Made by a program: the position numbers and the translations under genes. Positions 1,905-6,016 of a DNA stretch of 64,000 nt are shown piece by piece (positions within the stretch are counted from its first letter, which is position 1; every line of letters begins with the position of its first letter). The DNA is from a virus (taxonomy: Duplodnaviria > Caudoviricetes): the IMG/VR virus record IMGVR_UViG_3300026522_000024, positions 32,001-96,000 of that record; one strand, written 5' to 3'. The notes under the pieces were generated by a model, which saw nothing but the letters and a program-made list of their open reading frames with translations, ran no database searches and was not told where the DNA came from.

Positions 1905-1958
1905 GATTTTTCTTCATCCTTACTTTATTATGTAAGGAGTATTCCGATATTCCTTTTT

Positions 1959-2110
1959 GTAGGGCATAGGCAGTGGAATCTTAGCTGTTAGCCGTTGTTG
2001 CCGTTTCCTAGATTCTTTGACGTTCCTAAAAATATTTTTGGAGCACACTATAAGAAACTTGGTTGGCGTTGTTGGGCGTATAAAGCATGATATGGCTGCT
2101 TATGTCTTAC
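1959..2110 (+). ncRNA. Candidate structured ncRNA upstream of tRNA-Thr
   Basis: 16-bp closing stem GTAGGGCATAGGCAGT / GCTGCTTATGTCTTAC with G-U pairs, internal hairpins, no ORF. Confidence 0.5.
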
Positions 2111-2114
2111 TTAT

Positions 2115-2190
2115 GCACTCATAGTTCAATTGGTAGAACAACTGACTTGTAATCAGTAGGTTAGGGGTTCAAGTCCCTTTGGGTGCTCCA
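2115..2190 (+). tRNA. tRNA-Thr(UGU)
   Basis: Cloverleaf; anticodon arm ACTGA-CT-TGT-AA-TCAGT; GTTCAA T-loop; encoded CCA. Confidence 0.95.
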
Positions 2191-2338
2191 ATAGTGTATC
2201 ACACCCTGGCAGACAAAACACCAAAGGATAAGGAATCTGCTGTTATCGACCACAGCCTTGGAGATTATTCCTGAAGGACACAGTAAATGCCATCATTGGG
2301 GTGCCATGAGTCATAAAGCTGGGAAAGACTCATATTCA

Positions 2339-2415
2339 GCTCCTCTAGCTCAGTTGGTTAGAGCCCCCGCCTCATAAGCGGTAAGTCCTCAGTTCAAGTC
2401 TGAGGGGGAGCACCA
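2339..2415 (+). tRNA. tRNA-Met/Ile2(CAU)
   Basis: GCTCCTC acceptor; CCGC-CT-CAT-AA-GCGG anticodon arm; CCA end; lacks the initiator 3 G-C pairs. Confidence 0.92.
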
Positions 2416-2416
2416 C

Positions 2417-2493
2417 AGGGGTATAGCCAAGTTGGTTAAGGCATGGGACTTTGACTCCCAGATTCGATGGTTCGAGCCCATCTACCTCTGCCA
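2417..2493 (+). tRNA. tRNA-Gln(UUG)
   Basis: TGGGA-CT-TTG-AC-TCCCA anticodon arm; GTTCGAG T-loop; CCA end. Confidence 0.95.
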
Positions 2494-2526
2494 ATAGAGT
2501 TCAAATTGTTGAAATAAGTGCCGTGT

Positions 2527-2710
2527 ATACTGACTGTAATCAGGAGCTACAGAAATGAGGCTTGGCAGACCTTAGTGCTGGTGGAAATAAGACGCATATA
2601 TAACTTGGGAAACCCAGGCTACACTTAGAAATGAGTAAAAGCTAGATGCGCAGGAAGGTTCACTATAATAGACCACCAAACCTGACTACTGTTACAGCGG
2701 TAGTCAGTAT
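2527..2710 (+). ncRNA. Candidate multi-stem ncRNA between tRNA-Gln and tRNA-Pro
   Basis: Closing stem ATACTGACTGT/GTAGTCAGTAT; nested TCAGG/CCTGA, TGGTGG/CCACCA, CGCAT/ATGCG; three GAAA tetraloop hairpins. Confidence 0.6.
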
Positions 2711-2713
2711 TAT

Positions 2714-2790
2714 CCAGATGTAGCTCAGTTTGGTAGAGCGCCTGCTTTGGGAGCAGGATGTCGCATGTTCAAATCGTGTCATCTGGACCA
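2714..2790 (+). tRNA. tRNA-Pro(UGG)
   Basis: CCTGC-TT-TGG-GA-GCAGG anticodon arm; CCA end. Confidence 0.95.
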
Positions 2791-2799
2791 TATTTATGT

Positions 2800-3194
2800 G
2801 GGGACGTAATGGTATCGACAGAGTATTGAAGTCATGAAATTCGCAGGTCATGAGTACAGACCTTAATTGGCTCAATAAATTGAACTGACGAATATGATGT
2901 TCGCATCGCTGCTTAATCTGTTTTTATAACAGGTTATTTAGCCCTTACTGTATCACTAGCTGTGAGCAGGGCAGTAAGTTTCAAATAAACACAGCAAACA
3001 TCAGGGTTGCCCATTCCGATGTAAACAAAATGGGGTTGTTTCCTGCTTTATCTTAAAAGCAGGTGGTGGAGGTGTGGACCATTGCACTTGTTCGCTGGTT
3101 GCACCCTAGAGTTGCCCTCTATAAAGGCTATTGCGATAATGTTTCATGAGTGAATGTATTTTGGACAGGGGTTCGATTCCCCTCGTCTCCACCA
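2800..3194 (+). ncRNA. ssrA: tmRNA; tag approx. (A)DEYDVRIAA*
   Basis: 5' GGGGACGTAATGGTATCGACA and 3' GGGGTTCGATTCCCCTCGTCTCCACCA form a tRNA-Ala-like domain with G3-U wobble; short tag frame 2887-2916 ending Ala-Ala-stop. Confidence 0.93.
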
Positions 3195-3241
3195 AAGCCA
3201 TCAATCCCAATGGGATAAAATAATATATAGGAGGAATTAAC

Positions 3242-3820
3242 ATGAGTAAACTTGGTGGTTGGATTATTGAACCTTCTTCAACGAAGATGCCTCAAAAAGT
3301 AGCTAGTTCCTTTGACAAGGTGGAAAAGGTTTTTGGCTGTACTTACAAGGCTATTTCTTATGTTGGTAAGCAAGAAGTAAATGGAATCAATTATGCCGTT
3401 TTGGCTGAGCAGACCGTCATCACTGGTGAAGACACGAAGAATGCTGTTATCATGATTTTCAATGAGAAGCCAGAGAGCAGTGATTTGGCTTGGGTCGGAA
3501 CCATTCCTGTTGTGGAAGGTGGCGGAAAGTTTGGTGGCACAGACGTTGAGATGATGAGTGCTGATTGTGTTGGCAATCCTGAGAAGGATGTGTTCAATAA
3601 AGCCATCGAAGGGTTTGTTGGTTCCAACATTGAGCTTGTAGCTACAGTTGGTACTAAGGTGACCAAAGGCATTGAGCACAAGTTCATTGTTACTATTGCT
3701 CCAGTGGTACCAGGGGCAGAGAAAAAGCTGGCTGTTATGTCTTACAATGACATGACTAAAGAAATGAATTTTGAGCCACTTTTGGCAGCTGCTAAGCTGG
3801 GATATTCTTTCACTTGGTAA
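3242..3820 (+). CDS. Tandem cystatin-like domain protein
   Basis: N-terminal LGGW; KQEVNGINY and TKVTKGIEH resemble cystatin QxVxG; two internal repeats. Confidence 0.5.
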   Translation: MSKLGGWIIEPSSTKMPQKVASSFDKVEKVFGCTYKAISYVGKQEVNGINYAVLAEQTVITGEDTKNAVIMIFNEKPESSDLAWVGTIPVVEGGGKFGGTDVEMMSADCVGNPEKDVFNKAIEGFVGSNIELVATVGTKVTKGIEHKFIVTIAPVVPGAEKKLAVMSYNDMTKEMNFEPLLAAAKLGYSFTW

Positions 3821-3823
3821 GGG

Positions 3824-4033
3824 GTGAGAAATATGTCTTCAATTCCACAGTATAACATCATTGACCCTAGTAAAGATGACTTGGGCGTGATTAAGGCAAA
3901 GATTGAGGCTATCTCAAAGCAAGTTGACGCAGGGGAAGTCAGCAAAGAGGATTTTGATAAGGAATTAGAAAAGCTGAGTAACAGTCAGAAAGACTCACTG
4001 GAACATGCCTTTGGTAAACCTATGGGAGAGTGA
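3824..4033 (+). CDS. Hypothetical protein
   Basis: ORF directly downstream of the previous gene. Confidence 0.6.
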   Translation: MRNMSSIPQYNIIDPSKDDLGVIKAKIEAISKQVDAGEVSKEDFDKELEKLSNSQKDSLEHAFGKPMGE

Positions 4034-4047
4034 CCATAATCAAATAG

Positions 4048-4135
4048 GGAGCAGTGTCCGAGTGGTTTAAGGTGGCAGTCTTGAAAACTGTTGTGCTTTA
4101 CAGCACCGTGGGTTCAAATCCTACCTGCTCCGCCA
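4048..4135 (+). tRNA. tRNA-Ser(UGA)
   Basis: GGAGCAG/CTGCTCC acceptor; GCAGT-CT-TGA-AA-ACTGT anticodon arm; long variable arm; CCA end. Confidence 0.95.
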
Positions 4136-4146
4136 TAGGACAATAC

Positions 4147-4175
4147 AAGGCTGGGATGTGTTCCCAGCCTTTTTT
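4147..4175 (+). terminator. Rho-independent terminator after the tRNA island
   Basis: AAGGCTGGGA-TGTGT-TCCCAGCCTT followed by a T-run. Confidence 0.85.
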
Positions 4176-4177
4176 AT

Positions 4178-4726
4178 TTGATTGAGGTGAAAGAAGTGTA
4201 TAAATCAATGATGGCTGGATTCCTTATTGCCTTAGGAGGTTATGTTAACCTGAAAGTTGGTGGAGTATTAGGTGCTTTTTTATTTTCTCTTGGTCTTTTA
4301 TCAGTTATAGCCTTCAAAACTCCATTGTATACAGGTATAGTATCAAACCTTGAAAGCTATAATTATCCACGTAATATGTGTAAAGTATTAGTATACAACT
4401 GTATAGGTGCTGCTATGTTAGGTCTACTGTTTTATGGTGGTAGCAGCGATTCAGCTATCAATGTTTTGGCTAAATTGGACAAAAATTTGTTTTCTATTAT
4501 GCTAGATTCATTTATTTGTGGGTCATGTGTATCTATAGCAGTTAAATCTCAGAGTAAACTTATGACTATAATGGCTGTAGCTGTGTTTATCCTAGCTGGA
4601 GGTGAACACTGTGTGGCTGATGTGTTTTATTTTATGTCTGTAGGCACGTTACCAATCACATTTATCCTAACAGTTGTAGTAGGAAATACTCTTGGTGGTA
4701 TTGTATTCAGTAACATAACCAAGTAG
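4178..4726 (+). CDS. Formate/nitrite transporter (FNT) family channel, short form
   Basis: Hydrophobic; LYTG motif, FILAGGEHCVADVFY (FNT EH-x-[VI]-A-[DN]) and GNTLGG. Confidence 0.8.
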   Translation: MIEVKEVYKSMMAGFLIALGGYVNLKVGGVLGAFLFSLGLLSVIAFKTPLYTGIVSNLESYNYPRNMCKVLVYNCIGAAMLGLLFYGGSSDSAINVLAKLDKNLFSIMLDSFICGSCVSIAVKSQSKLMTIMAVAVFILAGGEHCVADVFYFMSVGTLPITFILTVVVGNTLGGIVFSNITK

Positions 4727-4773: not shown

Positions 4774-5028
4774 ATGAAATCAATACCAGTTTATATGGTA
4801 ACTATGGGTAATACAGATGGCTCTATAACTGCTGGAGACCACATTTTTTATGGTGAAGATGGAAGTCTAAATTTGGTAGAATCCAAAAGCTGGTTTGAGC
4901 AAGATGAGTTTACCAAGGAAATAACAGACTTCTCTTGTATACCAGTGGATGACATAACAGTTTTGAAACATCTGGGTAGGTATCTCATACTGTCCTATTC
5001 TGTAAGGAGTGAAGTAAGAGTTGGTTGA
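4774..5028 (+). CDS. Hypothetical protein
   Basis: RBS AGGAGG before ATG 4774. Confidence 0.6.
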   Translation: MKSIPVYMVTMGNTDGSITAGDHIFYGEDGSLNLVESKSWFEQDEFTKEITDFSCIPVDDITVLKHLGRYLILSYSVRSEVRVG

Positions 5029-6016
5029 AGACTGGGTTGCCGAGAATATTGATTCAGAGATAAAACATACTGGTAGTGGTAAGGAGATTCATGTTAATTG
5101 CCCAGTGTGTGGTGATTCTAGGTATAGACTATACATTAACTTAGATAAAGGCTTGGTTCACTGCCATAATTGCAAATTTAGTGGAAGTATAGTACACTTA
5201 ATACAATGGGTAGAGGGCACAAGTTATACTAAGGCAATGATGAAGTTTTCTACTATAAAGGGAAACTTGTCTATGCCTGATAAGATTGATGAGTCCATAG
5301 AGCATCAGCTATTTTTGTCTGGAGATTTACGTAAGGGATTGACTAAAAGAGCAATTCCACTTCCAGATGAATACAGAAAGATTAGTGGCTCAAATAATCT
5401 TGTAGCAATAAGAGCCAGGAAGTACCTAAAAAAACGTATGATAACCAGTAGTATGATAAAACAACATGACATAGGGTTTTGTGCTTCTGGGGAGTACGCT
5501 AACAGGATAATTCTACCCATTAAGGAAGAAGGAGAACTCAGATTTTGGGTAGCTAGAGCCATTGGTAACAATGCTAGGCTAAAGGAAAAGTCACCATCCA
5601 ATGAGGAATACCAGATAAGTAAATCAGAGGTAATTTTCAACATTGATAGAGCAGCCAGCCAGTATCATGCTGCTGTTATATCCGAAGGTATTTTTGATGC
5701 TTTGGCTTGGGGTGGAATAGGGGTATCCTTATTAGGTAAGGAACTATATGATGAACAGATGAACATATTATTGGACTACAGGGAATTACTTAGTGATGGA
5801 CTATACATAGCGATTGATTGGGATGCACGTCAGCAAGCTACAGAAATGGCTGAGAGGTTGTCTAGTTATTTTGACGTAAAAATAGTCAATATCCCAAAGA
5901 AATATGATGACCCAAATAAGTTTAGACAGACCCACAAGTACAAGGATATGCTTAAACTGTTAGAAGAAGCAGAGCCATATGGGGAATTTTCTTCAGTAAG
6001 AAGGAGATTTACATAG
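5021..6016 (+). CDS. DNA primase (Zn finger + TOPRIM)
   Basis: CPVCGD...HCHNC Zn finger; RIILP; SEGIFDAL; DWD; DDPN. Confidence 0.9.
   Translation: MVEDWVAENIDSEIKHTGSGKEIHVNCPVCGDSRYRLYINLDKGLVHCHNCKFSGSIVHLIQWVEGTSYTKAMMKFSTIKGNLSMPDKIDESIEHQLFLSGDLRKGLTKRAIPLPDEYRKISGSNNLVAIRARKYLKKRMITSSMIKQHDIGFCASGEYANRIILPIKEEGELRFWVARAIGNNARLKEKSPSNEEYQISKSEVIFNIDRAASQYHAAVISEGIFDALAWGGIGVSLLGKELYDEQMNILLDYRELLSDGLYIAIDWDARQQATEMAERLSSYFDVKIVNIPKKYDDPNKFRQTHKYKDMLKLLEEAEPYGEFSSVRRRFT

Follow-up and report, generated by a model that had tools for sequence, protein, structure and literature searches.

A candidate orphan RNA in a dimorphic slot of the tRNA-tmRNA island of an uncultured SPO1-like rumen phage

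INTRODUCTION

It is a long-standing observation that the tRNA clusters of phages contain additional stable RNAs to which no role has been assigned. Structured RNAs such as GOLLD and ROOL, which are several hundred nucleotides long and have well-supported covariation, are often found in phages beside tRNA genes. In the literature on phage tRNA-cluster RNAs, the sole precedent that we found for the locus described here is the pair of small non-tRNA RNAs of phage T4, RNAC and RNAD (species 1 and 2 RNAs), which are encoded in the tRNA cluster, are co-transcribed with it, and have no assigned function (PMC3014915, PMC9697503). The bacterial Y RNA-like YrlA family (RF02553) is a non-coding RNA with a tRNA-mimicking part that is sometimes phage-borne and lies near tRNA genes (PMC4201824).

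In this study, we report the analysis of a 220-nt spacer, termed type A, between the tRNA-Gln and tRNA-Pro genes of a rumen phage. Like RNAC and RNAD, type A lies within a predicted tRNA transcription unit, is non-coding, and is by its sequence not a tRNA. It differs from them in having no sequence similarity to 50,697 phage records (blastn), in being known here from sequence alone, in the other host lineage (an SPO1-like phage, rumen metagenomes), and in occupying a slot that has two unrelated occupants. Whereas YrlA mimics the acceptor/T-arm module of a tRNA, type A mimics an anticodon arm. Unlike GOLLD and ROOL, it is only 220 nt long, has no Rfam family match at E<=10, and is represented by just two distinct sequences. 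We favour, at slightly less than even odds, a reading of type A as an orphan RNA of the RNAC/RNAD kind; the more solid result is the dimorphism of its slot, whose alternative occupant, type B, is supported by covariation.

RESULTS

The RNA island and its setting

The window analysed, a stretch of 64,000 nucleotides, corresponds to bases 32001-96000 of a virus record that is 116,104 bases long and carries direct terminal repeats; its source is an uncultured SPO1-like rumen phage of 116 kb. An SbcC-like nuclease (63-1904) and a DnaG-type primase (5021-6016) both have their top similarity to Bacillus SPO1-like phages, at 31-34% amino acid identity. The RNA island of the window phage sits between these two genes, which are adjacent in SPO1 itself. 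Close relatives, whose neighbouring contigs were fetched via a 192-residue protein encoded at 3242-3820, are metagenome assemblies, and in our own reading their record names suggest rumen samples. The RNA genes of the island are as follows.

2115-2190, tRNA-Thr
2339-2415, tRNA-Met
2417-2493, + strand, tRNA-Gln
2494-2713, + strand, type A spacer, 220 nt, the element under study
2714-2790, + strand, tRNA-Pro
2800-3194, full-length tmRNA (Rfam, 99.9 bits)
4048-4135, tRNA-Ser

The first-pass annotation had placed an unassigned RNA at 2527-2710, embedded between tRNAs. This holds, with tRNA-Gln and tRNA-Pro flanking it on the same strand within a phage tRNA cluster. Consensus scans of the + strand over 1905-3785 called zero promoter-like and zero terminator-like sites, and the first good predicted terminator (4147-4171) lies past tRNA-Ser. 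Within the spacer, a TATAAT at 2664-2669 has no -35 box, and no internal promoter was found at 9/12 or more matches. Since the spacer has no predicted promoter or terminator, type A is expected to share the transcript of the tRNAs and to be released when they are processed, in line with the release by flanking tRNA processing that had been proposed. The spacer contains no credible ORF and none with a ribosome-binding site, and the idea of a small-peptide gene was dropped.

Between the tmRNA and tRNA-Ser lie two small ORFs. The ORFs in or near the island (3242-4033, 4178-4726) encode the 192-residue protein, which has no Pfam hit, a 69-residue product, and a member of the formate/nitrite-transporter family. 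Of these, the 192- and 69-residue ORFs precede the predicted terminator at 4147-4171 and may share the tRNA/tmRNA transcript. The tmRNA at 2800-3194 is an Rfam hit, yet ARAGORN does not call it in the window phage or in two relatives that carry type A (L005, L006), while it does call the 76-82% identical allele of other relatives, with tags such as DNCEVRLAA.

Searches for known families and homologues

Scanning 2494-2713 with Rfam 15 (4227 models, including 6S, SRP, RNase P, riboswitches, ribozymes, GOLLD, ROOL, and raiA) gave no gathering-level match. At E<=10, the 220 nt alone returned hairpin-level chance hits only, at 11-15 bits against thresholds of 54-120, in agreement with the first impression of an unrecognised RNA. 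YrlA (RF02553) was rejected at 16.6 bits against a 69-bit threshold, with the match mostly on tRNA-Pro itself. A Y RNA reading was likewise dropped, as the Ro60/TROVE gene (PF05731) is absent from the 116-kb genome and control genomes scored positive.

Nucleotide searches of the 220 nt against the 50,697 phage records gave zero matches. Exact or purine/pyrimidine-degenerate pattern scans, which detect near-identical sequence only and could miss distant homologues, revealed no further copy in IMG/VR viral and JGI metagenome contigs or in 185,579 species genomes. A covariance model of type A (R1), applied to 86 sources (~1.02 Mb, loci around related primases) of which the window was the one with a type A locus, recovered the window's own copy only, and it had no match in four complete viral records from more distant relatives; an nhmmer search of every fetched locus found the known type A copies only. 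Type A is a moderately supported candidate for an orphan RNA whose direct support is weak.

Local hairpins and competing long-range helices

Predicted helices of type A, whose columns are numbered from position 2494 as column 1, are listed below.

2500-2513, + strand, 5' hairpin, TTCAA/TTGAA stem, 4-nt loop, probability 0.75
2527-2535 with 2702-2710, + strand, terminal stem, 9 Watson-Crick pairs, 11 pairs including two G.U
2540-2544 with 2681-2685, + strand, TCAGG/CCTGA helix
2545-2562, + strand, GAAA-loop hairpin, probability about 0.6, loop GGAA in L006
2579-2584 with 2673-2678, + strand, TGGTGG/CCACCA helix, ensemble probability 0.42-0.49
2579-2678, + strand, central domain, the two inner long-range helices enclosing hairpins 2604-2618 and 2623-2636
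2593-2597 with 2646-2650, + strand, CGCAT/ATGCG helix, ensemble probability 0.42-0.49
2604-2618, + strand, hairpin capped by GAAA or AAA, probability 0.83-0.94
2623-2636, + strand, hairpin capped by GAAA or AAA, probability 0.83-0.94
2682-2707, + strand, 3' hairpin, 11 bp, 4-nt loop, probability 0.94

The local elements are the better-defined part of this fold. The three capped hairpins reported in the first-pass annotation (2545-2562, 2604-2618, 2623-2636) are all present, with GAAA or AAA caps, and so is the alternative 3' hairpin, which ends 6 nt 5' of tRNA-Pro. It is followed by TATTAT rather than a U tract, and the terminator scan makes no call there. The central domain is the minimum free energy fold of the isolated segment, and it carries zero substitutions in the known copies.

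The long-range part of the originally drawn structure fared less well. An 11-bp terminal stem had been described, and it does exist as 9 Watson-Crick pairs plus two G.U pairs, the former being a 9-nt perfect inverted repeat, but its ensemble probability is about zero. All three nested helices are also present, yet TCAGG/CCTGA has a probability near zero, while the two inner ones are predicted at intermediate frequency. The 3' hairpin competes with the terminal stem and TCAGG/CCTGA for common bases and wins, and imposing the four long-range helices of that structure costs 6.7 kcal/mol (-46.6 vs -53.3). The end-to-end multi-junction fold is therefore thermodynamically disfavoured relative to the 3' hairpin, although in a nascent transcript through column 203 the multi-junction core is the best fold; according to this folding model, synthesis of the last 11 bases should remodel that multi-branch core. 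The segments suggested to form pseudoknots are indeed complementary, but the pairings cross each other with 0- and 1-nt linkers, and no support for them was found.

Compared with shuffled sequence, the fold of type A is barely better than chance, with z values of -1.08 for the 220-nt spacer, -2.34 for 2527-2710, -1.67 for the core, and -1.10 for a second version of it (2544-2681); the minus strand, at -1.67, is about equal to the plus strand.

Tandem units and a tRNA-like arm

Two families of direct repeats, D1 and D2, recur in type A at spacings of 73 and 76 nt and delimit two tandem units.

2508-2580, + strand, tandem unit 1, ~73 nt
2581-2656, + strand, tandem unit 2, ~76 nt
2529-2546, + strand, look-alike of the tRNA-Thr(UGU) anticodon arm, 4-bp stem, 6-nt loop, hairpin probability 0.48

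When the sequence is aligned with itself, columns 15-66 against columns 88-142, the score is 35, compared with a mean of 21.6 (sd 3.9) and a best of 36 among 200 shuffles. MAFFT, used to align the two units, left their hairpins out of register, and pair counts from that alignment are disregarded. Both units follow one plan, in which a purine-rich lead GAAATAAG is followed by a first hairpin, a CTACA motif, and a second hairpin ending AGAAATGAG. Hairpins stand at two matching places in both units, with differing stem sequences; the first hairpins (2530-2543, 2604-2618) have only their outer bases in common, and both fold.

The first hairpin of unit 1 is at the same time a look-alike of a tRNA arm. 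Segment 2529-2546 matches tRNA-Thr positions 27-45 at 17/19 places, with one gap that makes its loop one U shorter; the score of 26 exceeds the maximum of 24 in 300 shuffles, a modest excess after correction for the five tRNAs tried. A second resemblance, of 2498-2508 to the tRNA-Pro T arm (10/11 bases), is not significant (p about 0.15). In the 3' hairpin, the 5' arm is yet another copy of the look-alike segment, again diverged, which explains the alternative pairing of the 3' end without a switch. The suggestion that this pairing is a possible switch is accordingly improbable, as its competing arms are two copies of one repeated segment.

The unit size together with the tRNA-Thr similarity suggests, on sequence grounds, that type A may derive from duplicated tRNA-gene material. 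No cloverleaf was found in it by ARAGORN at the default or the 80% threshold, with or without introns, and the tRNA model RF00005 has no match there at E<=10. At 70% with introns, ARAGORN makes implausible calls, and it does so likewise in the other three non-tRNA stretches tested. Given that neither unit is recognised as a tRNA, the duplication is old. The tandem duplication, the anticodon-arm look-alike, and the replacement of type A by an unrelated RNA in most relatives, described below, were absent from the first-pass annotation.

Two unrelated sequences in one slot

In the window phage and the relatives fetched, the slot between tRNA-Gln and tRNA-Pro holds one of two unrelated sequences. 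Type A (220 nt) is present in three lineages, namely the window strain (L025-L031, identical throughout), L005, whose copy is 100% identical to that of the window over 220 nt, and L006, whose copy has five substitutions (2511, 2542, 2553, 2686, 2709; 97.7% identity). Most relatives carry type B instead, which makes type A dispensable to the phage. Type B is 334-335 nt long and occurs in L002, L009-L018, L021, L022, L036, and L038; four of its locations are given here.

L009:2641-2975, type B
L002:2450-2783, type B
L021:2641-2975, type B
L038:51-386, type B

Type B resembles type A in its slot, strand, and flanking tRNAs, in the lack of any ORF or Rfam match, and in having a stable helix by tRNA-Pro, in its case a long 3' helix that reaches the last base before that gene. 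It is unlike type A in length and architecture and in the absence of alignable similarity. The two have in common only their first dozen bases and the last few beside the tRNAs, and homology between them was rejected, as their best common word is a 12-mer (p about 0.02) that lies on opposite helix strands. The chief difference is that six of the 94 predicted pairs of type B show compensatory double changes, whereas type A has none. In controls, zero compensatory pairs were seen in six slid registers, and the covariation score was reached by 0/500 shuffles. These compensatory changes indicate that the slot holds a structured RNA in most relatives; type B is such an RNA and is better supported than type A.

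Sequence change and linkage

Only two distinct sequences of type A are known, and for this reason it offers zero compensatory changes. Pairing tolerates four of the five substitutions of L006 (A-U to G-U, GAAA to GGAA, C-G to U-G, and U-A to U-G), compared with about 37% of random transitions by our own estimate. Among them, A2553G retains the GNRA pattern of its loop, C2686T turns a C-G pair of the 3' hairpin into U-G, and A2709G leaves a U.G in the terminal stem; the remaining one, G2511A, breaks one pair of the 5' hairpin at 2500-2513 and with it the hairpin. Over the three lineages, changed sites number 5/220 in type A and 12/395 in the adjacent tmRNA, i.e., type A changes as slowly as the neighbouring tmRNA. 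This rate is somewhat stronger evidence than the fit of the substitutions to pairing. The synonymous divergence of backbone genes from the window is 0.12-0.20 for L006 and 0.8-2.0 for L005.

The island is a fine-scale recombination mosaic, with identical runs of 213 and 334 nt in nearby coding sequence, and a recent exchange that took in the tmRNA too, instead of selection, could account for the high identity of type A. Wherever type A occurs, the tmRNA beside it belongs to a single allele group (97.7-100% identity). Co-adaptation of spacer and tmRNA was considered and dropped, as type B accompanies three tmRNA alleles that are mutually only 76-93% identical; the association of type A with its tmRNA is for this reason read as plain linkage.

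DISCUSSION

A processed RNA as the leading explanation

We tentatively regard type A as a processed non-coding RNA that comes from the tRNA-tmRNA precursor, is stabilised by its 3' hairpin, carries two hairpin modules, and acts in trans. What the analysis shows is the position of type A, its lack of a coding frame or a known family, its local hairpins, its internal duplication, its slow change, and the dimorphic slot; its co-transcription, processing steps, stability, and trans action are what we infer. As one of two interchangeable RNA genes of the tRNA-Gln/tRNA-Pro slot, type A would be transcribed within the polycistronic tRNA-tmRNA precursor, after which an RNase P cut at the 5' end of tRNA-Pro would generate its 3' end and 3' maturation of tRNA-Gln its 5' end. 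The freed RNA of ~200-220 nt would have its 3' end protected by the 11-bp hairpin, and its two diverged modules of ~75 nt could close into a small multi-branch core, with one hairpin that may imitate the tRNA-Thr anticodon arm. In trans, like other stable RNAs of phage tRNA clusters, it may bind a protein or act as a decoy in the infected cell.

If type A is a real RNA, the locus would be a natural experiment in which unrelated RNAs stand at one operon position in close relatives, and the A/B dimorphism would point to a host-specific, swappable function.

Decayed tRNA duplicates as a rival reading

The strongest competing account, which we think unlikely though it must be taken seriously, holds that type A is functionless debris, i.e., tandem duplicates of tRNA genes that have decayed to spacer, with hairpins left over from tRNA arms, and is tolerated where it lies since tRNA processing removes it. 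The 73-76-nt unit indeed has the length of a tRNA gene, 2529-2546 resembles the tRNA-Thr anticodon arm, and the leader of the island also contains a repeat with 74-nt spacing; the match of 2498-2508 to the tRNA-Pro T arm would fit as well, had it reached significance. The weak fold z and the dispensability of type A, which is replaced in most relatives, point the same way. Against decay, neither unit yields a tRNA call (ARAGORN at 80%, Rfam at E<=10), yet both have kept their matching hairpins; type A remains 97.7-100% identical across lineages with a backbone dS of 0.12-2.0; and type B, the alternative allele, shows clear selection for structure.

A possible element acting in cis

A role in cis, in which the 3' hairpin and the upstream pairing that competes with it guide or time the processing or stability of tRNA-Pro and the tmRNA, appears improbable to us. 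It would account for the 11-bp hairpin that abuts tRNA-Pro, for the long helix in which type B likewise ends at tRNA-Pro, for the constant company of one tmRNA allele group, and for a multi-branch core that is expected to form in the nascent RNA to column 203 and then be remodelled. However, some 200 nt far exceeds the need of a processing signal, and the tmRNA link looks like plain linkage given the diverged tmRNA alleles found with type B. Complementarity to the tmRNA does not go beyond that of shuffles (z about -1 for all combinations and for either tmRNA allele), and there is no U tract for attenuation.

A possible cassette slot for trans effectors

Bolder, and in our estimate rather improbable, is the idea that the slot is a locus for exchangeable RNA cassettes, with A and B as alternative structured trans effectors that tRNA processing would deliver. 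Type A, through its anticodon-arm look-alike and its duplicated hairpin modules, would then lure away some tRNA-directed factor of the host, e.g., a defence nuclease. If this were true, the slot would be the RNA counterpart of the hot spots at which phages carry variable anti-defence genes.

Improbable readings: switch, ribozyme, and mobile element

Very little speaks for a ligand-sensing riboswitch or self-cleaving ribozyme that toggles between terminal stem and 3' hairpin. The bases 2700-2710 do have two mutually exclusive pairings, and the four L006 substitutions inside 2527-2710 all fit both, but about 37% of random transitions would do the same by our estimate, the competing arms duplicate one repeated segment, Rfam yields neither a riboswitch nor a ribozyme family at E<=10, and type A is followed by neither a terminator-like U tract nor a sequestered ribosome-binding site. 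A terminator-type riboswitch or attenuator was dropped in view of the TATTAT after the 3' hairpin, the missing terminator call, and the lack of a matching aptamer family.

It is equally hard to credit a MITE-like non-autonomous mobile element inserted between the tRNAs with the terminal stem as its terminal inverted repeat, for although the 184-nt unit has a perfect 9-bp inverted repeat at its ends and varies in presence among close relatives, it is single-copy in the 116-kb genome, has no counterpart in viral contigs, metagenome contigs, or 185,579 species genomes by pattern scan, shows no target-site duplication that we could see, extends its stem through G.U pairs only, which are meaningful in RNA and not in DNA, and is swapped between A and B at boundaries (about 2506 and 2707) that differ from the repeat ends.

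Two further functional ideas did not survive. In the phage genome, the closest approach to an antisense target or to another copy of type A is a 14-mer inside the range of shuffles, and CRISPR-repeat mimicry by the 3' hairpin found no match in the 185,579 species genomes.

Other observations in the island and its relatives

In L041:9169-11725, a more distant relative whose primase is 52% identical, ten tRNA genes follow the primase, and their spacers, 280-435 nt long, gave zero matches to the type A model. In some relatives of the window phage, the gene call for the dUTPase (L009:6333-7577, also L010-L012, L017, L018) gives a product of 414 residues with faint hits to GIY-YIG (SegE-like) and NUMOD3, as if a homing endonuclease, absent from the window, had been inserted or fused there.

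The tRNA genes of the island (2115-2790, 4048-4135), compared with those of L002, L005, L006, L009, L017, L021, and L038, fall into distinct alleles. Most differences among these are paired changes in stems, and each gene reassorts without regard to its neighbours. The tRNA-Met of the window differs from that of all relatives at 21-22 of 77 positions, and its tRNA-Thr has C at loop position 32, where all relatives have T.

The leader before tRNA-Thr (1905-2114) is 91-96% conserved and contains a direct repeat (1986-2000 and 2060-2074) with 74-nt spacing, a tRNA-sized period as in the type A duplication. The 148-nt spacer between tRNA-Thr and tRNA-Met (2191-2338) is 88-97% identical in all lineages and exceeds the adjacent tRNA-Met and tRNA-Gln in conservation. 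Its consensus fold has 31 pairs, the last hairpin of which is kept in L005 through altered stem bases, and the spacer is likely a further RNA of the operon.
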